The notes below the pieces were generated by a model. It worked only from the letters and a program-made list of their open reading frames with translations, had not been told where the DNA came from and made no database searches. Both the position numbers and the translations under genes were made by a program. Source: a virus. From it: a stretch of 60,130 bases of DNA. Below are positions 7,725-51,151 of the stretch, piece by piece (position 1 is the first letter of the stretch; each line of letters begins with the position of its first letter). The stretch lies in IMG/VR virus record IMGVR_UViG_3300006854_000005. The stretch is one strand, 5' to 3'.

Positions 7725-7730
7725 GTCGAC

Positions 7731-7771: not shown

Positions 7772-7962
7772 GACGTCGTGTCGATTTCGCTCGCCCCCTT
7801 GCGTCATTTCGACGGTCCGCGAGCAACTCCACGACCTTCAGCACTAGGTCGACCGCTTCGTTGTCGTTCCGGATTAGCCGCACCACGATCAGAAGCCTCT
7901 CATCCGGTACGTCCAGCACCGAAGCGCCCATCAAACGGCTGTACTACAGGCGTGTCACGCGC

Positions 7963-21866: not shown

Positions 21867-22006
21867 AGGCCTCGTTCACCCGTGCAGAGATCGACGAGTC
21901 GCGCGCCCTCTGGCGCTGGTACATGTGGGTCCGCGAGTGGGGGCTCATCGGGTTCTTCGTCGCCGACACCGCCCGGCGCGAGCGCGCACTGTGGGAGCGG
22001 CCGTGA
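21863..22006 (+). CDS. hypothetical protein, 47 aa
   Basis: GTGA-coupled at both ends. Confidence 0.35.
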   Translation: MKASFTRAEIDESRALWRWYMWVREWGLIGFFVADTARRERALWERP

Positions 22007-32590: not shown

Positions 32591-33880
32591 GTGACCAACT
32601 TCGTCGACGACAACACCGCCCTGGACGCCGCGCTATACGCGGCGAAGACCGACATCAAGCCGGTCACGAACGCGACGAGGCAGATCACCGCGGCCGATCT
32701 CAATGCGATCAGGACCGCGCTCGACGACATCCGGACCGTGCTCCAGCGCGCTCCGGTGACCATCAAGGCGTTCGGTGCTGTCGGCGACGGAGTGACTGAC
32801 GATACGGCGGCGATTCAGGAGGCGCTTGACTACGCGGCGTCGCTGGGGTCGATCTCGAACGGCACGTTTCGCGGGTCCGAAGTGCTCATTCCGCGATCGA
32901 CGCGGCCGTACATGTTCAGCAACCTGCAACTCCCCGGCTACGTGTCGCTGGCCGGAGAGCAGATGGGGCACTGCGTTCTGCGGCGCATCACCGGCTCGAC
33001 GGGCAGCGCGATCCGCGAGCAGAACAGCACCGAGGACCCGAGTGGTGCCGGCGGCTCCGGGTCCTGGATTCGAAATCTCAGCCTCGATGGCAACGGCACC
33101 GCGGGCGATGGGATCAACCTCGGTGCGATCACGCAGCTCAACTTCCTGGCCGGCATCGAGAACGTGTTCGTATCCGGCTTCCCGTCGGGCTCCGGGTTCA
33201 AGCTCAACGCGAACGCGATCTCGTGCCGCTACCTGTGGGCCAACGGCAACCAGATCGGCGTCAACATCACCGGCGGTGGCGGCAATGGATGGTTCGGTAT
33301 CTGGGCCGAGAACAACACGCAGAACGACGTGGTGATCGGCAGCTCGGGGGACAACTTCTACCACATCCAGACCGAGCCTGGACCCGATGTCGAGACCACG
33401 CCGAGTATCCTCATCACCGGCGCAGACAATCACTTGTTCGGCGTGTACGTCGGGCTGCTCGCTAACCGGAACGAGATCATCCGGATCTCGACCGGCGCGA
33501 ACAGATGCGGAGTTCGCGGCGTCAGGATGGCAGCCAACGGCCACACCTTCACTCACCTCATCCTCAATGAAGCATATGCGCTCGGCACCGGGAACACCGT
33601 CACGGACGTCGACGAGTACGTGATGGGCGAGGCCACCGGCGCCGCATCCTTCTACATCAACCAGAGCACCGGGCAGGTCAACTCGACCATCGCGGATCTG
33701 GTGACGCTCGGTGGGGCGCTCAAGGGCGCGGGTACGCGCGCGGCAGCGCCGAGTACCGGGACCCATGTTGCCGGCGAAGTCGTGTTCAATGCTGACCCTA
33801 TCTCCGGTGGCTTCGCCGGATGGATCTGCGTTACCGGAGGAACCCCGGGGACATGGAAGTCGTTCGGGGCGATCTCATGA
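32591..33880 (+). CDS. tailspike / polysaccharide depolymerase with pectate-lyase-type beta-helix
   Basis: 429 aa. Hallmark IKAFGAVGDGVTDDTAAIQEALDYA followed by repetitive beta-helix-like segments. Confidence 0.65.
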   Translation: MTNFVDDNTALDAALYAAKTDIKPVTNATRQITAADLNAIRTALDDIRTVLQRAPVTIKAFGAVGDGVTDDTAAIQEALDYAASLGSISNGTFRGSEVLIPRSTRPYMFSNLQLPGYVSLAGEQMGHCVLRRITGSTGSAIREQNSTEDPSGAGGSGSWIRNLSLDGNGTAGDGINLGAITQLNFLAGIENVFVSGFPSGSGFKLNANAISCRYLWANGNQIGVNITGGGGNGWFGIWAENNTQNDVVIGSSGDNFYHIQTEPGPDVETTPSILITGADNHLFGVYVGLLANRNEIIRISTGANRCGVRGVRMAANGHTFTHLILNEAYALGTGNTVTDVDEYVMGEATGAASFYINQSTGQVNSTIADLVTLGGALKGAGTRAAAPSTGTHVAGEVVFNADPISGGFAGWICVTGGTPGTWKSFGAIS

Positions 33881-34575
33881 GCAGCCTTCCCGCATTCCTG
33901 CCTGCTCCTCTCGGAGGCGACACCATGAAGTCTCTCGCCGACATCATCTCGATCGTTCGCTTCCGGGGCGACATGCGGAGTTCCATCCGCTTCCCTGACG
34001 CGAACCTGACGACCGAGATCCAGGCGTCTTGGGCCGAGCTCTACCAGCTGATCGCGCAGACGAACCAGGGCTACTGGGACATCGTGAGCACGGTGTTCAC
34101 GATCGCCGGCGTGGACTATTCGCCGCTGCCCGACAGCACGTGGGTCGTCCGCAAGATCAGCCGGCTCGAGGGCACGTCGTACGTTCCGATGGACCAGATC
34201 GGCATCGACGAGATCGACAACTTCGCCCCGACCGGTCGACCCTACTGCTTCCGGCCCACCGAGCGCGGGGTCGACCTGTACCCGACACCGGACGCGGTCT
34301 ACACGCTGCGCTTTGTCACCACGCCGCTGGCGCCGCAGCTGAACGAGGCGCGCGAGTTCTTCAACGGATGGGAGGAGTTCGTCATCTACGGCGCGCTCAT
34401 CCGGCTCGCGGCGAACAGCGAGCGCGACATCACCGCGTGGGAGCGCCAGCTCGAGAAGGCGCGCGTCGTCATCACCGGTGGAGCGTCACAACGCAAGGCG
34501 CAGGAGCCCGACTACATCCCGATCCGCGAGACGTTCTACGACGCCCAGATCGGGCGCGACGAGAGGTGGCGCTGA
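33877..34575 (+). CDS. virion protein, 232 aa (adaptor / tail tubular A position)
   Basis: ATGA-coupled start. Function assigned by gene order only. Confidence 0.35.
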   Translation: MSSLPAFLPAPLGGDTMKSLADIISIVRFRGDMRSSIRFPDANLTTEIQASWAELYQLIAQTNQGYWDIVSTVFTIAGVDYSPLPDSTWVVRKISRLEGTSYVPMDQIGIDEIDNFAPTGRPYCFRPTERGVDLYPTPDAVYTLRFVTTPLAPQLNEAREFFNGWEEFVIYGALIRLAANSERDITAWERQLEKARVVITGGASQRKAQEPDYIPIRETFYDAQIGRDERWR

Positions 34576-36386: not shown

Positions 36387-39300
36387 ATGGCGCTACGCCC
36401 TGCTGAGGTTCACGTCGGGTTCCGCGGCGGCGTATCTACGCGCGCCGACAGCAAAACCGTGCCACCGACGCAGCTGCTCGTGCTTGAGAACGGCGTTTTC
36501 TCCCGTGAGACGTCCATCCGCAAGCGCAACGGCTACGAGTCGCTCGCATCGGTGATCGACGGCTCGGCGTCCGTCCTGACCGGCGCGATTCGTACAGCCA
36601 CACGCGACAACGAGCTGATCGCGTTTACGTCGAACCGCGCCTACTCGCGCCAGACCGGAGCGGACCAGTGGAGCGACACCGGAGCGGTCTACAGCGTCGT
36701 CGGCAACGATCGGCCGCTCGTCAAGACCGGGACGCAGCAGCTGCAGCCAGACCATGCCACGCTCGGCTCCGTCACCGTCGCGGCATGGGAGGACTCCGCC
36801 GGCGGCGTGTGGTGGAACGTCGTCGATGCGGTGAGCGGGCGCATCTACCGCGCGGCAACGCAGGCCGATGCGCTCGGGCGGTCTCCTCGGTGCGTCACGT
36901 GTGGCCCCAACCTGCACATCTACTACGCCGTCCCGACGACGAACAGCGTGATGGCGATCGTCGTCAACCCGGCGGCCCCGGGCGCGGCGATAACGCCCGT
37001 CGTCCTCGTCTCTGACATGGACTTCACCCAGCCGATCTACGACGCGTGCGCGACTGCGCGATCCGGGACGCCGGCGGCGATCGCATGGTTCGAGGCCGGA
37101 ACGACCGCGGTTCGAATCGGCTACGTCGATGCGTCGGGCACGCTCGGGTCGCCAATCCTCGGGCACCCATCCGTGTTCACGTTCGCCGCGGCGCGTGACG
37201 CGACCTCCCCGCTGGGTCTCGCCTTCGAGGACAATGATGACCCAGGCTCCGGTCTCTTCGGGATCGCCTACATCTCAGGCGGCGCGTCCAAAGTGGCGAT
37301 GTTCGGCGCAGGGACCGTCTCACCGGCGGACCCGATTGCGCAAGTCGGCTCAACGAAAACCGGGCCGGCGGTGGTCAGCATCGTACGAGTCACCTTGGCT
37401 CTGACCAACGTCGTCGCGATCACGGCATGGGAGGAGGACGCAGCCGACCCGTCGAACGCGTCGGTGATCATCGCCCGGGTCAGCTTGAACTCCGGTCTGG
37501 TCTCGAGCTTCACGGTCCGCTCGGTCGGGATCGTCGCCCGCGCCTTCCTGATCGGCGGCTCCTCGCTGACCAGCAGCGCCTTTGTCACGCTCGTCCACGA
37601 CACGACGTTCTTCAACGTCTACGTGACGCTCCGAATGAGCGACGGGGTCTGCGTTGCGCGACTGGCCCCGGGCGCCGCGGCTGGGCTCCCCGGACGCCAG
37701 CACCTCGCGTCGGCGCCGCTCGACGGTGACTCCGTGTCCATCTCCCTCCCTTTCCGCGAGCGCCTCGTCTCCGAAAACAACGATAAGTTCCGCGAGACCG
37801 GGATCCGGCTGTTCACGCTCGACTTCGACAGCGAGGACTCGCACCAGTACGCGCAACTCGGCCGCGGGCTCTACCTCGCCGGTGCGTGTCCGCAGCACTA
37901 CGACGGGCGCCAGTGGACCGAACAAGGCTTCCACGTCGGGCCCGAGCTGATCGCGACGGTCTCCGCCGGCGGCGGGTCGATGACGTCGGCCGTGACGTAC
38001 CTCTACCGCGCCTGGTACGAGCGAACCGACTTCCAGGGCGAGGTGCATCGCGGCCCCGTCAGCATCGGCACGCTCGTCACGATGGGCGGCGCCGACACGC
38101 AGGTCACGCTGACGCTGCCGACGCTGCGCATCACCCAGGGCACGAACACGCGGGTCTGCGTGGCCCGCTCGCTCGCGTCAGACACCGGTGACACCGCCGA
38201 ACTGTTCCGCGTTACCTCGCTCGACCCGACCACCGCGGGCACGGCGAACGGCTACGTCGCGAACGATGCGACCGTCGACACCGTGTCGTTCATCGACCGG
38301 ATGAGCGACGCCGCTCTCCGTACCCAGGAGCCGCTCTACACCAACGGCGGCCTGCTCAGCAACGACCCGTCGGCGCTCGGCGCAGTCGTGTTTCGCGGGC
38401 AGTCGCGGCTGTTCTTTACCGACCCGTCGAACGGGCTGAACCTGCGCTACTCGCAGCCGCTCGACGATGGCTACGGCGTCGAGATCCCGCCGGACCTCGT
38501 GCTCTCGGTCGACCCGTTCGGCGGCGACATCACGGCCGGCGCGTTCCAGGACGGACGCGGCGTGATCTGGAAGGCGGGTTCCATCTTCCTGTTCCAGGGC
38601 GACGGGCCCGCGCCGAACGGCGACACCTCGACGGGTGGCTTCTCGACGCCGCAGCTCATCACGTCGGACGTCGGTTGCACCGACCCATCGTCGATCGTCC
38701 TGACGCCGAACGGCCACATGTTCAAGTCGGCGAAGGGCATCTACCTGTTAGCCCGCGACGGCTCGGTTTCGTACGTGGGCGCCCCGGTCGAGGCGTACAA
38801 CGCCCAGACGGTGCGGCGCGCGACGGTGATGCCGGACCGCACGCAGATCGTGTTCCTGACCGACAGCGGCCTCTCGCTGCTGTTCGACCACTACCACACG
38901 CAGTGGTCGACTTTCACGAACCACGAGGGGCTCGACGCCGCGGTGGTCAACGGCCGGTACCACTACCTGCGCACCGACGGTCGCGTGTTCCGCGAGACGC
39001 CGGGGGTGTACCTCGACGACAACGCGCGGATTCGACTGCGGCTCGAGACGGCATGGATCCACATGCTGCCGCAGCTGCAGGGCTTCCAACGCTTCTGGCA
39101 CTTGCACCTCCTCGGCACGTGGGTCTCGCCGCACCAGCTGGGTATCCAGTACCAGACCGACTACACGCCGGGCTGGACGGACAGCTACTGGTACGACGCG
39201 ACGGGCCTCACCGACGACACCGGCTGGATCACCGGCGGCAACGCGGCGCCCATCGGCGTCGAGTCGATCGTCGGGTCGCCCTACGGTGATGGGAACTACG

Positions 39301-39506
39301 GCGACGGTCAGTACGGCGGCTCGGCGTCGGGCCCCTACCAGTGGCGGCTCCACCTCGACGAGGCGGGCCAGTCGATTCAGTTCCGCTTCGAGGACTTCGA
39401 GGCGGAGGGCCACGCGGGTGCGTCGTTCGAGCTGACTGAGATGTTGCTCACCGGCGGAGTCAAGGCGCACGCCATCAAACCATTCACCTCGTCGAGGAGC
39501 CTGTAA
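36387..39506 (+). CDS. large tail protein, 1039 aa (tail tubular B / nozzle position)
   Basis: Track ORF with GAGGTG upstream. Assigned by size and by its position before three internal-virion-protein-like genes. Confidence 0.4.
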   Translation: MALRPAEVHVGFRGGVSTRADSKTVPPTQLLVLENGVFSRETSIRKRNGYESLASVIDGSASVLTGAIRTATRDNELIAFTSNRAYSRQTGADQWSDTGAVYSVVGNDRPLVKTGTQQLQPDHATLGSVTVAAWEDSAGGVWWNVVDAVSGRIYRAATQADALGRSPRCVTCGPNLHIYYAVPTTNSVMAIVVNPAAPGAAITPVVLVSDMDFTQPIYDACATARSGTPAAIAWFEAGTTAVRIGYVDASGTLGSPILGHPSVFTFAAARDATSPLGLAFEDNDDPGSGLFGIAYISGGASKVAMFGAGTVSPADPIAQVGSTKTGPAVVSIVRVTLALTNVVAITAWEEDAADPSNASVIIARVSLNSGLVSSFTVRSVGIVARAFLIGGSSLTSSAFVTLVHDTTFFNVYVTLRMSDGVCVARLAPGAAAGLPGRQHLASAPLDGDSVSISLPFRERLVSENNDKFRETGIRLFTLDFDSEDSHQYAQLGRGLYLAGACPQHYDGRQWTEQGFHVGPELIATVSAGGGSMTSAVTYLYRAWYERTDFQGEVHRGPVSIGTLVTMGGADTQVTLTLPTLRITQGTNTRVCVARSLASDTGDTAELFRVTSLDPTTAGTANGYVANDATVDTVSFIDRMSDAALRTQEPLYTNGGLLSNDPSALGAVVFRGQSRLFFTDPSNGLNLRYSQPLDDGYGVEIPPDLVLSVDPFGGDITAGAFQDGRGVIWKAGSIFLFQGDGPAPNGDTSTGGFSTPQLITSDVGCTDPSSIVLTPNGHMFKSAKGIYLLARDGSVSYVGAPVEAYNAQTVRRATVMPDRTQIVFLTDSGLSLLFDHYHTQWSTFTNHEGLDAAVVNGRYHYLRTDGRVFRETPGVYLDDNARIRLRLETAWIHMLPQLQGFQRFWHLHLLGTWVSPHQLGIQYQTDYTPGWTDSYWYDATGLTDDTGWITGGNAAPIGVESIVGSPYGDGNYGDGQYGGSASGPYQWRLHLDEAGQSIQFRFEDFEAEGHAGASFELTEMLLTGGVKAHAIKPFTSSRSL

Positions 39507-40498
39507 TGGGATTCTGGGACATTGCAAAGCGAGTCGGTCTGGGCGTCGCGACGGGCGGCATCTCCGAGGCTGGGGGCGCACGTCCGATCATCGACGCTGC
39601 AGCAGGGTCGGACTACACGAAGAACCTCCTGTTCGGCGGCAAGGCGACCGCGGGCGTCGACGCGAAGCTCGGGCACTACGATCAGGCCACGAATCAGCTG
39701 GGCCAGATCGCCCAGAACGCCCAGGGGCGCGCGGCACCGACGGCGGCCGCGACGATGGCAGGGCGCACCCAACTCGGCGCCCCTGCACAGCTCGCGACCG
39801 GCCAGATGGACCAGTCGCGAGGCGGGATGCTCGGCGTTGCGAACAGGCTCGGTGGCATCGCGAGCGGGCAGCAGGCAGGCGCCGGCGAGCTCGCGGTGAA
39901 CCGCCAACTCGGGCAGGCGAACGCCGCGCAGCAGGCCGCCGCAAGGATGGCGCGGGGCGCAAACGCGGCGCTCGCGTACCGCAACGCTGCGCGCAACAGC
40001 GCAGACCTCGGGCTCCAGGGCGCAGGGCTTGCGGCGGGCGCGCAGATGCAGGACCAGCAGGCCGCAAACGCCCAGCTCGGCCAGCTCTACGGCGGCATGT
40101 ATGGCCAGGACGCGAACGTCGCTGCGCAAAATGCGCAGCTCGGCCAGCAGGCAATTCTCCAGCAAGGCGCAATGGACCAGCAGACGACGCTGGCCAACGC
40201 GCAGGCCGGAAACACGGTCGCGCTCGCGAACCTGCAGGCCCAGCTCGCGCAGAGCGGGATGAACGACCAGCAGCAGCTGGCGGCGCTCGGGCAGATGCTC
40301 GGCTGGGATCAGGCGACGCTTCAGGCCCAGCTGGCGAAGGCCCAGATCGCCGCGAACGACAAGGGCATCCTCCCCGGGCTGCTCCAGATGGGCGGTCAGA
40401 TTGGCGCGGCGTACGCGACCGGTGGGATGTCCGCAGCGGCGCCGCGCGCAGCAGCCCCACCGGGCGGCGCGCTCGGTGGAAGCAACTGGGGGCCGTAG
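39506..40498 (+). CDS. internal virion / ejection protein-like, Gln/Ala/Gly-rich, 330 aa
   Basis: Low-complexity QAGNA repeats. TAATG-coupled start. T7 gp14-like position. Confidence 0.4.
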   Translation: MGFWDIAKRVGLGVATGGISEAGGARPIIDAAAGSDYTKNLLFGGKATAGVDAKLGHYDQATNQLGQIAQNAQGRAAPTAAATMAGRTQLGAPAQLATGQMDQSRGGMLGVANRLGGIASGQQAGAGELAVNRQLGQANAAQQAAARMARGANAALAYRNAARNSADLGLQGAGLAAGAQMQDQQAANAQLGQLYGGMYGQDANVAAQNAQLGQQAILQQGAMDQQTTLANAQAGNTVALANLQAQLAQSGMNDQQQLAALGQMLGWDQATLQAQLAKAQIAANDKGILPGLLQMGGQIGAAYATGGMSAAAPRAAAPPGGALGGSNWGP

Positions 40499-40504
40499 CG
40501 AGCC

Positions 40505-43135
40505 ATGGCGCTCTTTGGCGACAGCATGGTCGATGTCACCACGCCCGACGGGCGGCGCATCACCGTGCCGCAGCAGCTGGCGCAGGCCTTCCCGGGTCTG
40601 CAGCCGTACGCGCCTCCGCCCGAGGTCGCGCAGCCGCCGGCGCTGCCCGTTGCGCCCCCACCGCCGACGTTCACGCCACAGGACCAGCAGGACCTCGGCA
40701 AGCTGACTGCCGCACCTCCGCCCGACGCATCCGGCGCGCCCGTGACGATGCCGAGCCAGTCGCCACCGCAGGGCCCAGGGGGACCGCGCGGACCGGTCGC
40801 GACCCCCGCGCAGGCGACCGATGCGGGACGGCCGAACACGCCGGGCCCGATGACGAACGACCAGCTGGCGAAGATCGGGACGGCAGGCGCCTACAACGCG
40901 TCGGTCACGGCGCAGCAGGGCGAGCGCGCCGCGGTCCAGCGTCAGGGCGAGGCCCTCGCAAACCAGGCGACGGCGGTCGGCAAGGTCATGGAGGCCGCGG
41001 ATCGGCATGCCGACGAGCTGCTCGCCGAGCGCGCGAGAGTCGCCCAGGAGAACGCCGCGGCGCTGCAGGCCAAGACGGAGGAGTACCAGCGCAACGCCAA
41101 GGCCGTCGCGGACACCAAGATCGATCGCAGCGTCGACCACCCGGTGCTCGCGGCTCTGAGCTCGGCGCTCATCGGCATCGGGCAGGCGATGGCTGGACAG
41201 CCGATCGACGCGATGGGCGCGGTCTACAAGGCCATCGATCGCAAGGTCGCGGCCCAGATGCAGGACCTCGATCAGAAGCGCGCCAACCTCGGACTCCAGC
41301 GGGATGCGCTTGGGATGCAGCGGGAAGCTGGGCGCGACCGACTCGCCGAGATGGATACACTGCGGCTCGGCTACATCGAGCAGGCCAAGCGGCAGGTCGA
41401 GACGATCAAGCAGCAGACCACGAGCGACGTGGTGCGCGCGAATGCGGACGTGGCGCTCGCGAATCTCGACCAGAAGGCAGCCGACACGCTCGGCACTGCG
41501 GTTCATCGCGAGCAGCAGAAGCGCGAGGCCGAGGCGAACCGCAAGCAGCAGCTTCTGATGCATCAGCAGACCGTCGGCGTGCAGATCCGCGGGCAGAACC
41601 TCGAGCAGAAGCGGTTCGAGAGTCAGTTGGAGTTCCAGAAGCAGAAGGAGATCGACGAGGTCGCGACGAAGATCGCCACGGCGAAGGGCCTGCAGAAGAG
41701 TGAGGTCGAGAAGAAGATCGCCGAACAGGGCGTCGTCGACCCTTCGACCGGCAGCCTGATCCTGACGCCCGAGGGCCAGAAGAAGTTCGCCGATGCCGAG
41801 AAGGCCGAGGCCGCGGCGCGCGCCGCGAAGGATCCAGCGCAGGCGCAGAAGCTGAACGAGTACGCCGGTCAGCTGCGGGACAGCGCGCGCATCAATGATG
41901 TCGCGTTCGGCGTCAACAAGGAGAGCGCGCAAGAGGCGATGAAGGTTCTGAAGAACACACAGAACCTTACGAACGACATCGACACCGCGAAGCAGATGCT
42001 CGAGAAGGGGCCCGACGCGTGGAACCGCGAGGAGTGGGCGCAGCTCAAGGTCGGGTTGCAGAACGTCAAGATCAACTACGCCACGACCATCGGCGAACGA
42101 CTCTCGGTGCGCGCGCTCGAGGCACTGGACGACGTGCTCAGCGTGGACACCGACAGCATCTTCTCGCGCTCCGTCGACAAGGGCAAGGCGCTCGCTGCGC
42201 TCAAGACGCTCAACGCCGAGCTGATCCAGAAGGGCAACGTGGCGCTTCGGGGCGCAGGCATCAAGACGACGTGGAGTCCAGCGACGGCCGTCAAGGCAGA
42301 GCAACTCGGCAGCGAGAAGACGGCGCAGGAACTGTCCGAGGACGCGCGTCCCGGGGCACTCACTCGGGCCGCTGAGCACATCCTGCGCCCGTTCGGTAGC
42401 GGCGCCGACGAGCGCATTCAGGCCCCACAGGACGCCGCTCTCGAGGAAGCCAACGCGCGCCGCAGTGCGCCCAGTAAGGCATTCCCGGAGGGGCGGACGT
42501 CCGACTACGGACTCGCTCCGGATACCGACGAGAAGATCCGCGCGCTCGTCTCTCAGTCCGCCAAGGTCGGGCACGAGAAGTACGCCGACATCATCGGCAA
42601 GCTGAGGGCGCCGCTGGAAGGTGACCGTCCATCACTGGCGATCGGCGTCGCCAAGCTGATCCGAGACACGGACCCAAAGCTGTTCGCCGACATCATGTCT
42701 TCGTTGCCCGAGGCGACGCGCAACGAGATTGCGCAGTCGATCGCGCCGCCGCAGCTGAGCGGGCCGTACACGCAGCGCACGACCGATAGCCTGTCGCCCG
42801 AGGAGCGCGCGCAGCTCGAGGAGCAGCGCCGGCAGCGAACGACCGAGGCGGAGCGAGCCAGGTATCGCGCCGCCTACGACGAGCGCGCCGCCAAGGGAGC
42901 GCGCGGAGTTCCAGGGTCTGCCCCAAACCCGAGGGCGGAGGGTGAGCGAAAGCAAGATAGCGATCGTTTCTGGGACTCGCAGATGCGCGCCTCCGATGCC
43001 GAGTGGAGGGCCAAGGTCCAGAACTTGATGTCCACCAAGGGCCTCTCGTTTCAAGAGGCGGTCAACGAAATCGGGAACGTCAGCGACTTCTGGGATCAGA
43101 GAGAGAGAGCCAGGCTCGCTCGGGGTGGACACTAG
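40505..43135 (+). CDS. internal virion / ejection protein-like, coiled-coil, 876 aa
   Basis: Pro-rich N-terminus followed by long coiled-coil stretches. T7 gp15-like position. Confidence 0.4.
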   Translation: MALFGDSMVDVTTPDGRRITVPQQLAQAFPGLQPYAPPPEVAQPPALPVAPPPPTFTPQDQQDLGKLTAAPPPDASGAPVTMPSQSPPQGPGGPRGPVATPAQATDAGRPNTPGPMTNDQLAKIGTAGAYNASVTAQQGERAAVQRQGEALANQATAVGKVMEAADRHADELLAERARVAQENAAALQAKTEEYQRNAKAVADTKIDRSVDHPVLAALSSALIGIGQAMAGQPIDAMGAVYKAIDRKVAAQMQDLDQKRANLGLQRDALGMQREAGRDRLAEMDTLRLGYIEQAKRQVETIKQQTTSDVVRANADVALANLDQKAADTLGTAVHREQQKREAEANRKQQLLMHQQTVGVQIRGQNLEQKRFESQLEFQKQKEIDEVATKIATAKGLQKSEVEKKIAEQGVVDPSTGSLILTPEGQKKFADAEKAEAAARAAKDPAQAQKLNEYAGQLRDSARINDVAFGVNKESAQEAMKVLKNTQNLTNDIDTAKQMLEKGPDAWNREEWAQLKVGLQNVKINYATTIGERLSVRALEALDDVLSVDTDSIFSRSVDKGKALAALKTLNAELIQKGNVALRGAGIKTTWSPATAVKAEQLGSEKTAQELSEDARPGALTRAAEHILRPFGSGADERIQAPQDAALEEANARRSAPSKAFPEGRTSDYGLAPDTDEKIRALVSQSAKVGHEKYADIIGKLRAPLEGDRPSLAIGVAKLIRDTDPKLFADIMSSLPEATRNEIAQSIAPPQLSGPYTQRTTDSLSPEERAQLEEQRRQRTTEAERARYRAAYDERAAKGARGVPGSAPNPRAEGERKQDSDRFWDSQMRASDAEWRAKVQNLMSTKGLSFQEAVNEIGNVSDFWDQRERARLARGGH

Positions 43136-46100
43136 ATGCCGCTACTTCGCTCACCCAGCGGCGCCGTCATCGACGTTCCGGCCGAGCAGGTCGGCAACTA
43201 CGTCGGGTACGAGCCGGTCGAGGGCGCTGACGCGTCACGCGCGATTGCCGCACCTGAGTCACCCGATCGCGGCGTGCTCGGTGGCATCAACGCCGCGGCG
43301 ACCGGAATCCTCAGCGGCGCCACGCTCGGCCTGTCCGACTACGCGCTCAAGGGCCTGCTCGACAAGGGCGAGTTCGAGCGCCTCGCCTCAGAGCGCGAAG
43401 GTCATCCTGTCGCGAGCGGCATCGGACAGGTCGCGGGCGCAATTCTGCCGGCCGTCGCCGCACCCGGGTCGCTGCTCGGCAGCGCACCGTCTGGTCTCGT
43501 CTCGCACGCGCTCGCGCCGATGGTTGCCGAGGGCCGCGCGATCGGCGGCGCCGCGGGCGTCGGCCGGGTGCTCGCCGCGGGCGGTATCGAGGGCGCGGTC
43601 CAGAACGCCGGAATGTACCTGTCCGACACGGCGCTCGGCGACCGCGAGCTGTCGGCGGAGGGGTTGGCCGCATCGCTCGGGCCGGGGTTCGCGTTCGGCG
43701 TTGCCGGCGGCGCTGCGGCGCTCGGGATCGAGCATGGGACGATCGCAGCGCGGCGCCTGTTCTCGCGGGTCGGTGCCGCTGACAAGGCTGCGCTCGAGGC
43801 CGAATCGGCGTGGCAGGCGGCGCATCAGTCGACGCTCGAGGCGAATGACGCCGCGGCGGATATGGCGCGTGCGCGGCTGGCCGAGACGCGCGCCGCGCGC
43901 GAGCAGGCTCAGCTGGCCAAGCAGCGCGCGAAGCTGCGGGTGGTCGAGACCGAGCAGGCCGCGCCGCAGATCGACGCGACGTACAAGGCTGCATCGGTCG
44001 AGCGCGAGCAGGTCAGGGACGCGGCCAAGGCGGCATATGAGCAGGCCGCAACCCCGCCCGCTCAGCCCATCACGCCCCGCCTGCACGAGGGCCTCCGTGG
44101 CATGGGGCTCACCGACGCCGAGATCTCCGCCATGTCGCCGGCCGACCTCGCCGAGGCAACCCGGCTCATCGAGGGCGCCGACGCGGAGCTCGCGGCGATG
44201 CAGGGTGCCCGTCCACCCCTGCCCGAGGCGAAGGCCGCCGAGCTCGAGCAGGCCGTCGCGGAGCACGACGCCGCGCGCGCCGAGCTGGACGACATGCTGC
44301 GCCACCTCGAGGCGCCCGACATCGGCCCGGGTATCGCACCGCCATCGCGCGAGGTCCCGATCGGGGAGTTCGGGGCGCCTGGGCAGCGCGGCTACGACCC
44401 GGGCAACGTCAAGGCGCCAGGCCCGCCGTCGGTCGTCGAGGCACAGACCGTCGATGTCACCGCGGTCGGCAAGAGGAAGTTCGGGCAGGGCACACCGGCC
44501 GAAGGTGCCACGTTGGGCGGTCCGGTCGAGCGTACGCAGGCGCCGAGCGGTCGGGTTCTATCAGAAGGCGAGTTCCGCGAGCGGCAGCGGGCACTCCGAG
44601 CATCGCTTTCCGAGGGCGAGATCAAGCAATCCTTGCAGTACACTCGCGAAGACTACAACGACATCAACCGGTTCCTGCGCGGCGATAAACGCGTGCCCAA
44701 ACTCGGCGATCGCGAGGCCGAGATCATCCCCGCGCTGGATGCGATCATCGATCGATCGGTCCTCGGCGAGCCGATCGTGACCTACCGTGCGGCGCACTTT
44801 GACCCGCACGAAGTCGCGTTCGGTCTGAAACCAGGAGGCGTGTTCGAGGAGCCGGCATTCATGTCGACCTCGTATCGCCAGCACAATATCGGGCGGTTCG
44901 GAAACGTGGATTTCGTGATCACGTCTCCCGTGGGTACTCGAATAGCCCCGATACCGTCGTCGGCATCCGAGGGTGAGTTTCTCCTGCCACGCGGAACACG
45001 GCTGAGAATCACCAACAGGGTAGAGCACCCCGGAGTTGACGAGTTCGGACATCGCCACGTGACGCTCCACGCGACCGTTGAGCCCACCGCCGCGAAGGTC
45101 GCCCCGGCAGCCACCGACACCCTCACCGGCCAGATGCGCGCGATGCAGTCGCGTCTCGGGGCGGGCGAAGACCTCAAGGCGATGGGTGGATCGTCGCGCG
45201 CGGAGTACGCCGCAGCGAAGGCCGAGCGTACCGCGGCGGCAGCGGAGCACTTCCGGGGCGAGGCGATCGCGCGGCATGAGGTGCCCGAGTACGGCGCCCT
45301 GAAGTCGCAACTCGACAAGGCCGGTACCGACTACGTCGAGCAGTCTATTCCGGCCAGCAAGATCGCCGAGCGGGGCTACTACGAGCCGCCCGGTGGCGGG
45401 GCCGACGAGGTCAAGGCGGGCAAGGCCAAAGCGGCAATCGCAGAGGGACAGCGCGAGCCCATCACGCTAAACGTGACGCCGAGCGGGAAGATCGTCGTCG
45501 ACGATGGACGGCATCGGCTCGCGGCAGCGATCGATGCGGACGTCCCGGTCAAGGTGAAGTGGTCGACCGGATACGAGCCGAGCGCGGACATGGTGCGCCG
45601 CACTTCACCGTCCGATCCGTTCTTCGCCGACCTCACGCGCCCAAAGACGCGCGACGCGTACGTCGCGGCGAATATCGGCAGGGCGATGCGCGAAGAGGGG
45701 TCGCACGCTGCGGCGCTGACCAAGGTCGAGCGCGAGTGGGCGGACATGGGGGGTGCGCCGTCCGCGCGGACGGCTCAGCAGGAGGCACCGCAGACGTGGC
45801 GCGAGTTCACGGCCGGCAAGATTGGCGAGTACATGAAGTCCGAGGGCGGCCACGCGGGCGCGATGAAGCGGTTGGGCCAGGAGTGGCAAGAGATCAAGGC
45901 CGGAGGATCTGCGCGCGGTGTAGTCGCCCCAGCCGCAGCACAGAACGCCGTCGAGGACGTCGCGGCAGCTGCCGAGGTCGTCACCAAGTACGAGCGCGCG
46001 TCGGCCAAGCTGACCGATGTGCTCGGCCCAGAGGCACCGCCAGCGGCGCAGGAAGCGGCCAAGGCGTTCCGCGCGGCCGAGGATCACGCCGAGCGCAAGC

Positions 46101-47482
46101 AGATGGCTCGCACGACGCGCGCGATCGATGACAGCGTCGATTCGCAAGGTCGGCCGCGGACCGTGCTCGATGAGGGCCGCAAGAAGTCCGAGGCGAAGAT
46201 GGCGGCTGGGTCGACCGAACGCGAGGCGCGAGGCGCGCAACAGGCCGCTGCAGCCCCCGCGCGTCCGTCGTGGGAGCAGCTCGAGCAGCGCTACGGCAAG
46301 TACACTGGCCAGCCCGCGCTACCTCCGACGTCAGCGGAGGCACTTGCGGCGGCGAAGTCCGAGCATGGGGCTGCCGACGTCGCGCTCCAGCGCGCCAAGA
46401 TCGCCGAGACCGAGGCGGGGATCGGGTCGCGCGGCGCCGATGAGGACGCGACACAGGCCCGGGCCGCTGCAGAGGCCGCCCGCCCGCTGCCGGCGCCGCC
46501 GCCCTCGCCCTCAACGCTCGGCTCGATCGCCACGGCCATCGGGATCGCTGGTGAGGTCGGCATTCCAGGCGTGCCGCACCCGAAGGACATCCCGGTGATC
46601 GGCCCGCTGCTATCGATGTACCTCAAGTACAAGGCGCTGAAGTACGCCACCGGCCGCATGGTCGGCCGCGTCTCGGCCACCGGCGATGCGCGCGCGGCGG
46701 CGCTGGTCACGCGGACCAAGGAGAAGATCGCCGTCGCGGTCGACCGGACGCTCGGTCTCGTGGAGGCCGGCGCGAGCAGGGGGCGAGGCGGTATCGTCGC
46801 GGCGGCCACGGTGCTCGGTCATCGGGTATTCGACGACGGTGAGCCGGACGCCCCGACGGGCGCCAACGCGCAGCAGCTGGCAGCGGTGCGGATCCGCGAG
46901 ATCGCCAACGCGTCGACGCGGCCCGATCTGGTGTCCGCGCTGGTGCGCAAGGAGATGCGCGGCGTGGTCGACCCGGACCTCATCGAGGCGGCCGAGAAGC
47001 ACCTGACGGCCCGGTTCGAGGCGCTCGCCAAGGTCATGCCCAAGGCGCCACCGCCGAACCCCTACTCGAAGCGCGAGTGGCTCCCCTCGCCGGCCGCGGC
47101 GTACGAACTGTCGCAACGCCTCGCCGTCGTCCACGACCCGGAGCAGGCGTTCATCGACCCGACGCCAGCGAAGGCGCAGACCGCCGCGGCGGTCTACCCG
47201 AAGCTGCTCCAGTACGCGCAGCAGCGGCTCATGGACCGCATCGGCGACACGAGCAAGCCGGTCCCGTACGAGCAGCGACTCCGCGGGTCCCTCGTGTTCA
47301 AGGTTCCGCTCGACGATTCGCTGCAGCCAGATCATGCCGCGATCCTGGCGACCGCGCACGCACCGTCGCCGATCACCGATCCAGCGGCGCCGCAGCCCCA
47401 AGCGCCAGCGCCGTCCATCGCAGCCAACACCAACCTGACGTCCGTCTACCAGACGGGCACTGAACGACGAGCCATGAGGTGA
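43136..47482 (+). CDS. giant internal virion (gp16-position) polyvalent protein with ADP-ribosyltransferase and ParB-like domains, 1448 aa
   Basis: Gly-rich hydrophobic N-terminal segments. ART motifs: YTREDYNDINRFLRG (aa 502-516), R551, STS (aa 577-579), EGE-FLLPRG (E612/E614). ParB/Srx motif VVDDGRHRLAAAI (aa 787-799). Confidence 0.7.
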   Translation: MPLLRSPSGAVIDVPAEQVGNYVGYEPVEGADASRAIAAPESPDRGVLGGINAAATGILSGATLGLSDYALKGLLDKGEFERLASEREGHPVASGIGQVAGAILPAVAAPGSLLGSAPSGLVSHALAPMVAEGRAIGGAAGVGRVLAAGGIEGAVQNAGMYLSDTALGDRELSAEGLAASLGPGFAFGVAGGAAALGIEHGTIAARRLFSRVGAADKAALEAESAWQAAHQSTLEANDAAADMARARLAETRAAREQAQLAKQRAKLRVVETEQAAPQIDATYKAASVEREQVRDAAKAAYEQAATPPAQPITPRLHEGLRGMGLTDAEISAMSPADLAEATRLIEGADAELAAMQGARPPLPEAKAAELEQAVAEHDAARAELDDMLRHLEAPDIGPGIAPPSREVPIGEFGAPGQRGYDPGNVKAPGPPSVVEAQTVDVTAVGKRKFGQGTPAEGATLGGPVERTQAPSGRVLSEGEFRERQRALRASLSEGEIKQSLQYTREDYNDINRFLRGDKRVPKLGDREAEIIPALDAIIDRSVLGEPIVTYRAAHFDPHEVAFGLKPGGVFEEPAFMSTSYRQHNIGRFGNVDFVITSPVGTRIAPIPSSASEGEFLLPRGTRLRITNRVEHPGVDEFGHRHVTLHATVEPTAAKVAPAATDTLTGQMRAMQSRLGAGEDLKAMGGSSRAEYAAAKAERTAAAAEHFRGEAIARHEVPEYGALKSQLDKAGTDYVEQSIPASKIAERGYYEPPGGGADEVKAGKAKAAIAEGQREPITLNVTPSGKIVVDDGRHRLAAAIDADVPVKVKWSTGYEPSADMVRRTSPSDPFFADLTRPKTRDAYVAANIGRAMREEGSHAAALTKVEREWADMGGAPSARTAQQEAPQTWREFTAGKIGEYMKSEGGHAGAMKRLGQEWQEIKAGGSARGVVAPAAAQNAVEDVAAAAEVVTKYERASAKLTDVLGPEAPPAAQEAAKAFRAAEDHAERKQMARTTRAIDDSVDSQGRPRTVLDEGRKKSEAKMAAGSTEREARGAQQAAAAPARPSWEQLEQRYGKYTGQPALPPTSAEALAAAKSEHGAADVALQRAKIAETEAGIGSRGADEDATQARAAAEAARPLPAPPPSPSTLGSIATAIGIAGEVGIPGVPHPKDIPVIGPLLSMYLKYKALKYATGRMVGRVSATGDARAAALVTRTKEKIAVAVDRTLGLVEAGASRGRGGIVAAATVLGHRVFDDGEPDAPTGANAQQLAAVRIREIANASTRPDLVSALVRKEMRGVVDPDLIEAAEKHLTARFEALAKVMPKAPPPNPYSKREWLPSPAAAYELSQRLAVVHDPEQAFIDPTPAKAQTAAAVYPKLLQYAQQRLMDRIGDTSKPVPYEQRLRGSLVFKVPLDDSLQPDHAAILATAHAPSPITDPAAPQPQAPAPSIAANTNLTSVYQTGTERRAMR

Positions 47483-47485
47483 CCT

Positions 47486-47956
47486 ATGGGACGCAAAGGA
47501 CGAGCAGGCGGACGATACGTCACGCCGATCAAGAGCGACGGTACCGAGCCGGCACAGGACGGAGGCCGCGGCGTGTTCACGCTGGCCTCGGGCTCAACGT
47601 ACTACTACATCCTGGGCGGAGGCGACGCCTCGTTCATCAGCGGAACGTTCACCGGCTATGATGCCGCGGCGATCATTACGTCGGCGACCGTCCAGGACAC
47701 CGACCACGGCGAACTCGACGTCACCAACCTCAACGCGGTCGTCGGCGACTGGATCAGTGAGGATCCATCAACCGCGTTCGTCGGTGCCGATGGCGCTGGT
47801 TGGGTGGTGACAAACGGCGTGCTCGCAGTCGCTGGAGGTGCCGTCGGGGGCGCTCGGTTCAACGTCGCGGAGACCGCGGCGGCGCGAACTCGTATTGCGG
47901 TTGCGGTCGGCGGGACAGGCGGCAAGTTCCGAATGAGCGCCAACGGGAAGGACTGA
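47486..47956 (+). CDS. hypothetical virion protein, 156 aa
   Basis: Track ORF with GAGGTG upstream. Confidence 0.5.
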   Translation: MGRKGRAGGRYVTPIKSDGTEPAQDGGRGVFTLASGSTYYYILGGGDASFISGTFTGYDAAAIITSATVQDTDHGELDVTNLNAVVGDWISEDPSTAFVGADGAGWVVTNGVLAVAGGAVGGARFNVAETAAARTRIAVAVGGTGGKFRMSANGKD

Positions 47957-49503
47957 TGTTCAAAATCAGCATAAGGCTCGGACCGCGCCTCGGCGTCGGA
48001 ATCGGAGGAACCACAGATGGATTCGCTCCGGTGGCACCCGGGCCAGGTCTCGTGTTCTTCGCCGGCAGCTCCGGGGCGCAGGGACTGGCCACCGCCACAA
48101 ACTTCACGGACTACCCTGGGATCGACGCGGCGTATGCCGGATTTCAGTTCATGCGAACCGGTGCGCTGCTCAGCGGCGCCAACGGCGGATCCTGGACCAG
48201 CGAGACCAAGCAGGACCTGCAGCCGCGCACGACGACGATCGGCGCGCCATATATCGTCGGCACGGCCGGCTACGAACTCAAGCTCGGGCGCGATCTAGAT
48301 GCGGCCAACGCAAACGCATGGGGCGGGGCGACGTTCACCACTGACGCAGCATCGCTGCACAGTACGCTGCACTTCCTGAATCCCGCGTGGCCGACCGTCG
48401 GCGATCAGTGGGTCGTGCGGCTGTGCACGGCAATTCAGGCTGCCATCGAAGCCCACGGCAAGCCGCTCAAGGTGTTCGTCTGGGATCATGGCAACGACGC
48501 GTCCGATGGGACGGCGACGGCAGCGTACTACACGAACCTCGTCTATCTATTCAACGTCGTTCGGCAACGCTTCGGCAACGTTGGTATCGTTGTCATGCGG
48601 CTGTCGAACCGCAGCACCTTCGGCGGTGGCATCAACGCCGTGCGAGACGCGATGGAGTCGTTCGCGATGCGCCCCGAGAATGGGCGCGTTGCCGTGACAT
48701 ACATCGACGAGTGCTCTCTGCGAGACACCGCCCACCTAGCCGACGACGCCGCCGGCGTGCTCGGCTACTGCGAGGCCGGCAAGCGACTCGCGGTGGCGGT
48801 GATCGCCGCAGCCAACGACACGGTGCACCCCACCACATCACCGTGGTGGGGTGTGCAGGCAGTTCCACAGGTCGCCGGTTCGACGGCGTTCGCGAATCCC
48901 ATCCCGTACCCGAACTTCTACGGCAGCGCCAATAACAAGGCAGACATCGGCGTGCTCTGGTACTCGGGCGCAGGGAACACCCCCATCACCGCGCCGACCG
49001 GCTGGACGCAGGTAACAGGGTCGCCGGTGTGGGGTGGCGCAGTAACCGACGCGCGATTGCACGTGTTCACGCGGACGCTGCAGTCCGGTGACACCCCCCC
49101 GACGATTGCGGACGTGGCAGGCGATGGTGAGAAGTCGGCCGGCATCTTCGTGATCCGCAACTCGAGCGGGCTCGACGTCAACCCGACGACGGCCACCGTT
49201 CCGATCGCCGCTCCGTCGGCCTCGGTGTCCTGGCCGGCGATCACACCGGCCAGCACGAACTGCCTGATCGTGCACATCCTGGCACACGGCATCGACGCGG
49301 CGACACCACAGCTCGGCGGGCTGACGAATGCGGGACTGACCGGGCTCATCAAGCACGTGGACTACTGTTCGGTGACGAACTCCGGTACCGGATGCGTGGT
49401 CGGTGCCGGCGTGCGCGCGTCGGCGACTGACACGGGCGCCACGACTGGCACGCTGCTGGCCGCGGACACGCAAGCGCTGATGACCCTGGCGTTCAAATTA
49501 TGA
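47956..49503 (+). CDS. tail protein with SGNH / sialate-O-acetylesterase-like carbohydrate esterase domain
   Basis: Track ORF 47800..49503 trimmed to MFKISIRL, giving 515 aa. Blocks VFFAGSSGAQG, VWDHGNDAS and DTAHLADDAAGVLGYCEAGKRLA match the pattern of that esterase family. Confidence 0.5.
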   Translation: MFKISIRLGPRLGVGIGGTTDGFAPVAPGPGLVFFAGSSGAQGLATATNFTDYPGIDAAYAGFQFMRTGALLSGANGGSWTSETKQDLQPRTTTIGAPYIVGTAGYELKLGRDLDAANANAWGGATFTTDAASLHSTLHFLNPAWPTVGDQWVVRLCTAIQAAIEAHGKPLKVFVWDHGNDASDGTATAAYYTNLVYLFNVVRQRFGNVGIVVMRLSNRSTFGGGINAVRDAMESFAMRPENGRVAVTYIDECSLRDTAHLADDAAGVLGYCEAGKRLAVAVIAAANDTVHPTTSPWWGVQAVPQVAGSTAFANPIPYPNFYGSANNKADIGVLWYSGAGNTPITAPTGWTQVTGSPVWGGAVTDARLHVFTRTLQSGDTPPTIADVAGDGEKSAGIFVIRNSSGLDVNPTTATVPIAAPSASVSWPAITPASTNCLIVHILAHGIDAATPQLGGLTNAGLTGLIKHVDYCSVTNSGTGCVVGAGVRASATDTGATTGTLLAADTQALMTLAFKL

Positions 49504-50189
49504 CCGACGACAACGGAGACGACTTCGACGACAAGGTTACCCCGGGCCATGGCACCGGGGCCGGTCGCACCCCGAAGTCCTGGCGCATGTCGGACTCCGA
49601 GCGCGAGCGGCACCGTCGATCGTGGGCCCGCGGCGTGCCCGTCGTGCGGCCCGAACCGGACGACGAGGTTACCGCACCGCTCGAGCTGCTGCTCAACGGC
49701 CAGCTCGACGTCGACGACTACGCGCAGGTCGAGGCGCTGCGGCGCTCGGCGGATGACGTTTACGTCCTGATGCTCAATCTCGCGCGGGCGATCTCGAGGC
49801 ACCGCGACAAGGAGAAGAGTGGGCAGAAGGAGATCGAGAAGCAGGTGGTCGCGGCGATCGACAAGCAGGCGAGGCAGATGGCCGATCTGAGCACGCAGGT
49901 CGCCGACATCGCCGGCCGGGTCGCACCGATCGAGAACACCGTTCGCTCCGTCAAGGGCATCGGCTGGAAGGCCGCAGTTGCCGTGGTGACCGCCCTCGTC
50001 GGCAGCGCCGCGGCCATCATCGCTACGCTGCAGGCCAAGGCAGAGCGCGACGGGATCATGATCGAGCGCGTTCTTACGATCCAGCGCGACATCGCCGAGC
50101 TCAAGGCCGCGCGGATCAGCACCGATCACCGACGGGACTACGACTACGACATCACCCCGCGGCCTGCGCCGCCAAAGAAGGACCCATGA
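49500..50189 (+). CDS. hypothetical protein, 229 aa, coiled-coil with one C-proximal transmembrane helix
   Basis: ATGA-coupled start. TM segment WKAAVAVVTALVGSAAAIIATL. Confidence 0.5.
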   Translation: MTDDNGDDFDDKVTPGHGTGAGRTPKSWRMSDSERERHRRSWARGVPVVRPEPDDEVTAPLELLLNGQLDVDDYAQVEALRRSADDVYVLMLNLARAISRHRDKEKSGQKEIEKQVVAAIDKQARQMADLSTQVADIAGRVAPIENTVRSVKGIGWKAAVAVVTALVGSAAAIIATLQAKAERDGIMIERVLTIQRDIAELKAARISTDHRRDYDYDITPRPAPPKKDP

Positions 50190-50614
50190 ACACGCACCGC
50201 AGAGTTGCACTCGTCTCCCTTACGCTCCTCGGCACGGCCATCGCGTACCTGCTTGTCACGATGCTCGCCTCGCTCATCGGCTGGGCCGTCGCGCACGCGG
50301 ACGCCGGCGCAGTCGCTGCCGACCCCGGGATCCCCGTCGGAAAATACGGCTGGTGGGGTGGAGTGCTCGTCGCCTACGTCGCGGTCCGGTGGCTGCTCAA
50401 GCGGAACGAGAGCGAAGCCTGGCTCGCGCACGGGCGCACACTGTCGCTCCTGACCGCGGTGCTGAGCGTCGTCGGCTCGGTGATCGGGTGGCGGCTCGGC
50501 ATGGCCCCCGACACGATCGGGTTCGCAGTGGCCGGCGCGGTTCCGCTCGCGATCCCGTCGACGGTGACGCCTCGCCCGGCGCCCGTCACGGCTTCCGGCG
50601 AGACGAACGGATGA
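50186..50614 (+). CDS. multi-pass membrane protein, 142 aa (holin candidate)
   Basis: ATGA-coupled start. About four hydrophobic helices. Sits at the end of the late operon. Confidence 0.4.
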   Translation: MNTHRRVALVSLTLLGTAIAYLLVTMLASLIGWAVAHADAGAVAADPGIPVGKYGWWGGVLVAYVAVRWLLKRNESEAWLAHGRTLSLLTAVLSVVGSVIGWRLGMAPDTIGFAVAGAVPLAIPSTVTPRPAPVTASGETNG

Positions 50615-50740
50615 GCGCCACCACCACGAAGATCGCGGCTGCGGCGACCGCGCCCATGCCGATGTACATCCACGCCTCGCTCGTCATGCCCGGAACGTAA
50701 TCGGGAGTGACTTCTCGCGCTACCCACTGAAAGGACCCAA

Positions 50741-51151
50741 GTGCTGCTCCGAACCGTAATCGCTGTGCTCTCCGCTACCATCTGGTGGACCCTCGCCATC
50801 TCGTGCACCAAGACCAAGCCCTACACCGACTCCGCCGGTCACGCCGTCATCGACTGCGGCAAGCAGGACCTGACCGCGATCGCCGCCCTGGCCGCGGATC
50901 TCGGTGCGCGCGCCGCGCTGGCTGGCCACGTCGACTGGGATGCGATCGAGACCGCCGCGAAGGGCGCGGGGTTGGGCGTCGGGTCGTGCGCGCTCGCCGA
51001 GTTCCTGCGCGCGATCCGCAAGCAGCCGTTGCCCCAGGTCGCAGCGATGACAGGCGGACCGGTGCCGGACCTCGTGGCACTGGGCCAGGCGGCACTCGCG
51101 CGGGTCAGCGGTGGGGCGAGCGTGAAGCTGGCGGACGGGACGACTCTCTAG
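50741..51151 (+). CDS. putative lipoprotein, 136 aa (spanin-like position)
   Basis: GTG start with AAAGGA upstream. The signal MLLRTVIAVLSATIWWTLAISC ends in a lipobox-like AISC. Confidence 0.4.
   Translation: MLLRTVIAVLSATIWWTLAISCTKTKPYTDSAGHAVIDCGKQDLTAIAALAADLGARAALAGHVDWDAIETAAKGAGLGVGSCALAEFLRAIRKQPLPQVAAMTGGPVPDLVALGQAALARVSGGASVKLADGTTL

Follow-up and report, generated by a model that had tools for sequence, protein, structure and literature searches.

Introduction

Polyvalent proteins of phages and conjugative elements, described by Iyer, Burroughs, Anand, de Souza, and Aravind in 2017, join domains of unrelated biochemistry in a single chain, are encoded among virion genes, and are predicted to be injected along with the DNA (PMC5512222). 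ADP-ribosyltransferases (ARTs) are their commonest protein-modifying domains, and the class also includes ParB/Srx-type, GNAT, kinase, and pyrophosphatase domains; an ART has likewise been described within the virion RNA polymerase that Roseovarius Plymouth podovirus 1 ejects (PMC5512222). Temperate phages further encode MuF polymorphic toxins (Jamet et al. 2017; PMC5576092), for which MuF is a head-associated or packaged effector carrier (PMC5576092, PMC9503650). Here we analyze a gene for a protein of 1448 amino acids in a 60,130-nucleotide stretch of uncultured-virus DNA (IMGVR_UViG_3300006854_000005), which as a whole is called the window below. The protein belongs to a family with conserved ends, between which an ART and a ParB-like module are optional and exchangeable. 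We put at roughly 55% the probability that, within the internal (ejected) virion-protein cluster of an uncultured, short-tailed, temperate phage, it is the largest protein, and that it carries these effector cassettes in that role.

The ejection genes of T7- and P22-like phages stand together, the largest at the end, and size and synteny have been the main guides for matching them from one phage to another (PMC8954989). Enzymatic domains swap among ejection proteins, the transglycosylase being on gp16 in T7 and on the gp15 homolog in K1E/K1-5 (PMC8954989). The five ejection proteins of SU10 (gp20–24) come after the nozzle and needle genes (PMC9509320). Like T7 gp14/gp15/gp16, P22 gp7/gp20/gp16, and SU10 gp20–24, the 1448-amino acid protein belongs to a cluster that follows the adaptor/nozzle position, in which it is last and largest, and it is predicted to be largely helical with hydrophobic segments. 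Unlike podovirus ejection proteins, it has no sequence, profile, or fold similarity to any solved one and lacks a peptidoglycan hydrolase, and its cargo would be enzymes acting in the cytoplasm instead of a wall-degrading domain. Its ART is of the R-S-E type, as in T4 Alt, which is delivered from the capsid at infection. Alt is a dedicated myovirus protein, one that is directed to the head and undergoes processing by the prohead protease, whereas the ART here is one optional cassette in a 1448-amino acid carrier of a short-tailed temperate phage.

As in polyvalent proteins, a single chain encoded among virion genes combines an ART with a ParB-like domain, and NUDIX, GNAT, and kinase-like domains are found in relatives. 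However, the ART is of the R-S-ExE type (C3/VIP2/Alt-like), unlike the H-Y-D type of polyvalent proteins (PMC5512222). The ParB-like module also lacks similarity to P1 DdrB; the zincin-like peptidase, RNA polymerase, and 'large polyvalent-protein-associated' domains of polyvalent proteins were not detected here; and the N- and C-terminal carrier modules form a separate, undescribed family. With MuF toxins of temperate phages the protein shares a constant, probably virion-associated carrier joined to effector sequence that is highly variable and swapped by recombination, and in other phages this very ParB-like module occurs fused to MuF domains. Unlike in MuF toxins, the cargo lies in the middle of the protein between constant ends and not at the C-terminus, several modules occur in series, the gene comes after tail-hub genes and not beside the portal gene, and no immunity gene is evident. 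The 1448-amino acid protein itself has no MuF domain (PF04233), which turned up only in separate proteins with the ParB-like module.

Results

Constant ends and a mosaic middle

The G+C content of the window is 65–70%, and such DNA yields long spurious open reading frames (ORFs). An antisense ORF of 1065 amino acids (39377–42574, minus strand), opposite the genes for the 330- and 876-amino acid proteins, is almost certainly such a high-GC artifact, and calls for caution in that ORF length alone cannot be trusted in this window. The 1448-amino acid ORF is a genuine gene and not an artifact of this kind, because it has coding-type composition (G+C of 0.84 at third and 0.54 at second codon positions), 87 metagenomic homologs, which make a family of at least 88, and a curated Pfam domain. 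It follows ORFs of 1039, 330, and 876 amino acids, as described in an earlier reading made from the DNA letters and ORF translations (the sequence-only reading). Its start directly abuts the preceding stop, and its own stop is 4 bases ahead of the next start.

Coverage by the homologs differs sharply along the protein (all amino acid numbers refer to the 1448-amino acid protein). About 80 of the 87 cover amino acids 1–250 and 1126–1448, and only 21–40 cover the middle. An iterative module map of the 88 proteins gave the counts in Table 1, and the order of modules differs among members. Members without recognizable cargo are 826–1030 amino acids long. Homologs carry further cargo, which is solid for NUDIX and consists of weak matches for GNAT and kinase-like domains; at least eight recurring and about 30 singleton cassette segments in the family have no assignment.

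Exchange of the middle segments is evident in the related contig L011, which has ~93% DNA identity to the window over 11.4 kb. There, a clean insertion of 534 bp occurs at window position ~44537, the 3' boundary of the Ala/Glu-rich region, and the ParB cassette (window 45271–45618) is replaced by an unrelated 654 bp between flanks that are 87–95% identical. The insertion and the clean replacement together identify the middle of the protein as a site of recombinational cassette exchange. The carrier is conserved across the family, and the ART and the ParB-like module are cassettes that members may have, lack, or exchange, an arrangement overlooked in the sequence-only reading.

The only other swapped segment nearby is the tail-fiber/spike region (window 47924–49499 versus L011 15656–17665; flanks about 94% identical), which holds CLIPPER- and SASA-type genes in L011. 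Several family members have ART domains or ParB-like modules doubled in tandem (P0003, P0013, P0025, P0035, P0036, and P0046; P0047, P0054, and P0072). In contig L005, a distant relative whose large protein has no recognizable cargo, a free-standing gene for a 119-amino acid GNAT acetyltransferase (6506–6865) is present in the same cluster, and cargo may thus also be encoded as separate small genes.

The ADP-ribosyltransferase cassette

PF03496 (ADPrib_exo_Tox) matches amino acids 487–639 with an E-value of 4.4e-12 (46.2 bits, gathering cut-off 23.4). The nearest solved sequences in a PDB sequence search were the Listeria toxin Lmo0066 and the Serratia type VI effector Tre1, and a profile of the protein family run against PDB chains matched VIP2 at E=2e-16. 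Among PHROGs, the protein matched phrog_802 'Alt-like' (E=6e-4). An AlphaFold model of amino acids 470–940, for which 54 homologous segments were the input, had a mean predicted local distance difference test score (pLDDT) of 87, rising to about 90–97 in the ART region. Foldseek searches with this model retrieved Plx2a, VIP2, Lmo0066, C3, and CDTa, all with E-values near 1e-11 to 1e-12; single-domain targets gave target TM-scores of 0.6–0.8.

The catalytic residues R551, S577-T578-S579, and E612-G-E614 are intact, and the R, S-T-S, and E-x-E positions are kept in 42, 42, 38, and 41 of the family's 43 ART copies. From profile and model, amino acids ~480–645 are solidly assigned to the R-S-E clade of ARTs, with the predicted fold of the C3/VIP2/CDTa toxins; the ART domain proposed in the sequence-only reading was borne out by a Pfam match above cut-off, a toxin-like fold, and the presence of the catalytic residues. 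In the R-S-E clade, E-x-E denotes arginine-directed mono-ADP-ribosylation, and the domain is predicted from this motif to be an arginine-type (R-S-ExE) mono-ADP-ribosyltransferase.

The ParB/Srx-like module

Amino acids 716–826 probably belong to the ParB/Srx superfamily, as judged from convergent weak profile matches, a conserved motif, and a structural model. Among PHROGs, this region matched phrog_1033 'ParB-like partition protein' (E=1e-3). The Pfam family PF02195 (ParBc) was not found in the 1448-amino acid protein, in 15 copies of the module, or in the 10 sampled short proteins, mostly MuF fusions, that carry the module. DndB and DUF1015, which we take to be members of the ParB clan, appeared at about 0.09 among the 15 copies, and DUF1015 at E=0.0026 among ten sampled short proteins that bear the module. 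When compared with the PDB, a first, narrow module profile gave only SbnI (E=0.3) besides spurious NHL matches. A profile of 53 sequences gave SbnI (0.0065), Caulobacter ParB (0.1), Noc (0.27), and H. pylori ParB (0.9), with all of these alignments over the expected region and with spurious NHL-repeat matches scoring above them. Alignment by hhalign to an approximate Spo0J sequence was in the expected register at negligible probability, and the module profile had no similarity to P1 DdrB (L008:24542–27529; probability 0.06, E=0.75).

A D-G-[RN]-H-R motif is nearly invariant among the copies (G791 and R794 each in 42 of 44) and lies in the segment VVDDGRHRLAAA of the 1448-amino acid protein. 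The segment is modeled as strand-loop-helix, matching the Gly-x-x-Arg (arginine-box) loop of ParB/Srx proteins, and amino acids 716–826 as a whole are modeled as a small α/β domain (pLDDT mostly 88–96). The first of the two ParB-like copies in P0047 and in P0054 lacks the motif. Since the module is about 110 amino acids long and has neither a helix-turn-helix nor a dimerization region, it is not a partition ParB, and that identity was ruled out. The ParB-like domain of the sequence-only reading is thus retained on the strength of its motif and of weak matches that agree with one another, with no curated profile above threshold.

Searched with the module profile, a set of 1.84 billion representative proteins yielded 394 with the module. 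Eight of ten sampled short ones have a MuF domain, to which the module is C-terminal in most, and one sampled MuF/ParB-like protein also has an inorganic pyrophosphatase domain. That a single cargo module rides two unrelated virion carriers speaks well, if circumstantially, for its being a delivered effector. A small module with this distribution would be a bona fide mobile effector that deserves biochemical study.

Carrier modules and helical repeat

The N module contains glycine-rich, hydrophobic 19-mers within amino acids 46–198, and one further glycine-rich hydrophobic stretch occurs at amino acids 1128–1146, close to the start of the C module. In a full-length alignment, which drew on a 45-sequence subset of the 88 members, the C module has invariant Pro/Gly columns. 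The linker at amino acids 655–714 is modeled by AlphaFold as a helix, a turn, and a long helix. The two copies of the helical repeat, at amino acids ~836–872 ('TRDAYVAANIGRAMREEGSHAAALTKVEREW') and ~885–925 ('TWREFTAGKIGEYMKSEGGHAGAMKRLGQEW'), are each modeled as a helical hairpin with pLDDT above 90. For the carrier fold, we used a homolog that is 55% identical and free of ART and ParB-like modules (P0012). Its model is all-helical, with a mean pLDDT of 70 overall and above 90 in the equivalent of the C module.

Pfam searches with the separate noncargo segments of the 1448-amino acid protein gave no meaningful match. No muralytic domain was detected in the protein (Pfam, PHROGs, and NCBIfam) or in 68 homologs (Pfam), in keeping with the sequence-only reading, whose glycine-rich hydrophobic N-terminal segments, long helices (as predicted in P0012), and tandem helical repeat also hold. 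An N-terminal motif that seemed common to the 876- and 1448-amino acid proteins had no BLASTP support and was dropped.

Genome context

Structural genes identified in the window are those for the large terminase, the portal, the major capsid protein, and a pectate-lyase-type tailspike, together with a tail adaptor of SU10 type (Table 1). Genes for an integrase, a YqaJ recombinase, a DnaB helicase, and an RNA ligase lie on the other arm. Scans of the window genes showed neither a phage RNA polymerase nor a phage DNA polymerase. Given this gene content, the phage is, as judged from its genes, temperate and short-tailed, with a terminase-first gene order and without T7-type polymerases, so that its order resembles that of P22 or SU10 more than that of T7. 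The T7-like gene order of the sequence-only reading was discarded on these grounds. Its 'tubular-B-like' label for the 1039-amino acid protein also fell away, as searches gave no informative match; nor did PDB sequence searches of the 1039-, 876-, and 240-amino acid proteins.

The order of adaptor, ~1000-amino acid protein, ~330-amino acid protein, ~800-amino acid protein, homolog of the 1448-amino acid protein, ~150-amino acid protein, and fibers is kept in five related contigs (L003, L005, L007, L009, and L011). An adaptor family of SU10 type occupies the equivalent position in relatives, and the proteins at the nozzle position in relatives have 1053, 979, 1041, 1039, and 1040 amino acids. 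The 330-amino acid protein consists of 24% Ala and 16% Gly, is Gln-rich, and has no strongly hydrophobic segment. At the same position in L003, a 349-amino acid protein (6737–7786) bears a Peptidase_S74 fiber/needle chaperone domain. For this reason, the analogy to the three proteins gp14, gp15, and gp16 should not be pressed, and the 330-amino acid protein may be a needle-type protein and not a gp14 analog.

No cultured relative emerged from 50,697 GenBank phage records, either by tblastn (with the 1448-amino acid protein, the portal, and the 1039-amino acid protein) or by megablast of 24.5 kb, both of which gave zero matches. Among 185,579 species-representative genomes, the only matches were contigs binned to one Kofleriaceae and one Myxococcales metagenome-assembled genome. 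The high G+C content agrees with a myxobacterial host, and the host is possibly a myxobacterium, a hint and not a finding.

Table 1. Positions in the window of the carrier gene, its modules, and the preceding genes, with module counts from the map of 88 family proteins.
Feature	Position	Strand	Proteins with module (of 88)	Copies	Evidence
Tail adaptor, SU10 type	33853..34575	+			PF24175, E=1.4e-11, 45.6 bits (cut-off 27)
1039-amino acid structural protein, nozzle position, identity unproven	36387..39506	+			phrog_3287 'virion structural protein', E=0.0028 only
330-amino acid Ala/Gly/Gln-rich protein, candidate small ejection or needle protein	39506..40498	+			Composition, position
876-amino acid helical, charged protein, gp15-like position	40505..43135	+			One hydrophobic segment; position kept in relatives
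Whole gene, carrier protein with cargo cassettes, 1448 amino acids	43136..47482	+			ATG start; 87 homologs
N module, amino acids 1–260, glycine-rich, hydrophobic, conserved scaffold	43136..43915	+	87	87	Module map; no Pfam match
Helical Ala/Glu-rich region, amino acids 261–470	43916..44545	+	57		Long helix in P0012 model
ADP-ribosyltransferase cassette, amino acids 480–645, R551, S577-T-S579, E612-x-E614	44573..45070	+	37	43	PF03496, fold, catalytic residues
Helical linker, amino acids 655–714, 'ATDTLTGQ..AEYAAAKA..AAEHFR', scaffold	45098..45277	+	72	87	Module map
Probable ParB/Srx-like cassette, amino acids 716–826, motif D790-G-R-H-R794	45281..45613	+	39	44	Weak profile matches, motif, model
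Two-copy helical-hairpin repeat, amino acids 828–930	45617..45925	+	about 28–30		Module map; no Pfam match
Helical middle region, amino acids 937–1125	45944..46510	+			Coverage and module maps; helices in P0012 model
C module, amino acids 1126–1448, opens with hydrophobic Pro/Gly-rich segment	46511..47479	+	88	88	Module map

Discussion

Is the protein an ejection protein?

In the window and in the five related contigs, the gene for the 1448-amino acid protein or its homolog is the largest and last downstream of the adaptor and nozzle-position genes, and the protein has hydrophobic segments, as expected of a gp16-type protein. The gp16-position ejection protein of the sequence-only reading survives to this extent. 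Sequence, profile, and fold contribute nothing to it: Pfam and PHROGs contain no internal-virion-protein family that matches, a gp16-type N-terminal lytic transglycosylase was not found in the protein or in 68 homologs, and the P0012 model (of modest mean pLDDT, as noted above) has no match in the PDB or BFVD. Because the carrier modules match no family or structure, ejection-protein status rests wholly on synteny, size, and composition, and kinship to gp16-type proteins is unproven.

Several observations weigh against the protein being an ejected carrier of effectors. In Pfam, PHROGs, and NCBIfam the carrier modules have no matching family, family profiles run against all PDB chains return only ART or coiled-coil noise, and Foldseek with the P0012 model found nothing in the PDB or BFVD at E<=0.001. 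The neighboring proteins of 1039, 330, and 876 amino acids have no family match in Pfam or PHROGs that proves their identity, the GenBank phage records hold no cultured relative, and the ParB assignment of amino acids 716–826 falls under every curated threshold. The presence of the protein in the virion and its ejection are things we infer, and passage through the tail would require enzymes folded in the middle of a channel-forming protein to unfold.

If the protein is ejected, the N module, the helical linker and middle regions, and the C module would together form the carrier, which would be packaged in the head, exit through the tail at infection, and engage the cell envelope via its hydrophobic N and C modules. 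The ART and ParB-like cargo would reach the cytoplasm along with the leading DNA. There, the ART could use NAD+ to modify a host protein, resulting in takeover of the host or a blunted defense, and the ParB-like domain could be a nucleotide-dependent DNA-binding or nicking module. The cassettes themselves are traded by recombination between related phages, much as tail-fiber genes are. Packaging, ejection, targets, and biological role are all proposals of this model.

A broader and more tentative proposal, which we think somewhat less probable than not, is that the largest ejection protein of this short-tailed lineage constitutes a third, undescribed carrier class for polymorphic effectors, beside MuF proteins and N4-type virion polymerases, and that the ejection channel doubles as a programmable injector. 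If so, cassette enzymes held between membrane-engaging ends would unfold, cross the tail, and refold in the host.

Alternative explanations

The most serious alternative, though an unlikely one, is that the protein is passive head cargo, injected like T4 Alt or MuF-fused effectors but outside any trans-envelope channel, with N and C modules that serve only in capsid targeting or portal association. The types of cargo and the ParB-like module held in common with MuF proteins would suit head-packaged effectors (PMC9503650, PMC5576092), as would the lack of similarity between the carrier and any solved ejectosome protein. However, the gene lies within the block that follows the ~1000-amino acid tail protein, away from the portal gene, where MuF genes usually sit. 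The carrier also has several hydrophobic glycine-rich segments and cargo-free versions of 826–1030 amino acids, features that suggest an essential role for the carrier itself.

It is less probable still that the protein is a phage-borne polymorphic toxin for bacterial competition, as has been proposed for MuF toxins, in which the ART kills nonimmune recipients. The polymorphic architecture with its cassette exchange would be in accord with such a toxin, as would the temperate lifestyle of the phage and the closeness of the ART to the antibacterial and toxin ARTs Lmo0066, Tre1, C3, and VIP2. But no candidate immunity gene covaries with cargo. The downstream gene, for 156 amino acids in the window and ~150 in relatives, occurs in relatives with and without an ART; it is conserved whatever the cargo and was rejected as an immunity gene. 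In addition, the cargo is internal and not C-terminal, and many family members have no recognizable toxin.

Great length, helical structure, and hydrophobic stretches rich in glycine are also features of tape-measure proteins, some of which contain enzymatic domains. The composition of the protein and the all-helical P0012 model fit this description, and the nonsignificant BFVD neighbors of the model include tape-measure proteins (E=0.4–5). That the protein is the tape measure of a long-tailed phage is nonetheless very improbable, as an SU10-type podovirus adaptor is present, genes for a tail tube, a sheath, and tail-assembly chaperones were not detected in scans of the structural block, and the gene is preceded by those for the 876- and 330-amino acid proteins in place of chaperones. 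Just as improbable is a nonstructural late protein that acts in the producing cell and is never packaged. In its favor there is nothing specific beyond the indirect nature of the case for packaging; against it, the gene lies within the virion block and runs in the block's direction in each of the six contigs examined, and in the window it has tight junctions with both neighbors.

Novelty and implications

The sequence-only proposal of a polyvalent, probably virion-delivered multi-domain protein with an ART and a ParB-like domain accords with the domains identified, the conserved virion block, and the sharing of a module with MuF proteins. Its view that the domain combination is unusual was overstated, as an ART and ParB in injected polyvalent proteins, and an ART in a podovirus polymerase, had already been described (PMC5512222). 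Injected multi-domain polyvalent effectors that include ARTs (PMC5512222), MuF toxins (PMC5576092), T4 Alt, and domain swaps in ejection proteins (PMC8954989) are all known. A full-text literature search that paired ejection-protein or ejectosome terms with ADP-ribosyl terms found no such case described. What appears to be new is the carrier family itself, the internal instead of terminal site of the cargo, its place at the ejection-protein position in a temperate lineage with short tails, and the linkage of the ParB-like module to two carriers. Since the principle of injected multi-domain effectors is established, the carrier family extends the principle and does not change it.

If the carrier is truly ejected, the family would provide a natural series composed of one scaffold, dozens of payloads, and payload-free controls. 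Such a series would allow one to ask how folded enzymes thread through a podovirus tail, could reveal which host processes come under phage attack within seconds of the start of infection, and would help to assign functions to the many unassigned cassettes. The lineage may also infect myxobacteria, whose phage biology is poorly known.

Other features of the window and related contigs

The integrase gene is at 56859–57917 (minus strand); ARAGORN detected zero tRNA genes in the window, and an attachment site was not located. In L003 (19044–19763) and L007 (20785–21633), a recognizable endolysin (GH25 or Amidase_2) follows the fiber genes; the window stretch to compare is 49500–51200, and no lysis enzyme was found among the window genes scanned. 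A gene with a strong HNH endonuclease match (21882–23009, plus strand; phrog_826, E=7e-47) directly precedes the terminase genes, the placement usual in HNH-assisted DNA packaging. Lastly, this temperate phage encodes a T4 Rnl1-type RNA ligase (8897–9982, plus strand; PF09511, E=4e-17), which could repair tRNA cleaved by host anticodon nucleases.

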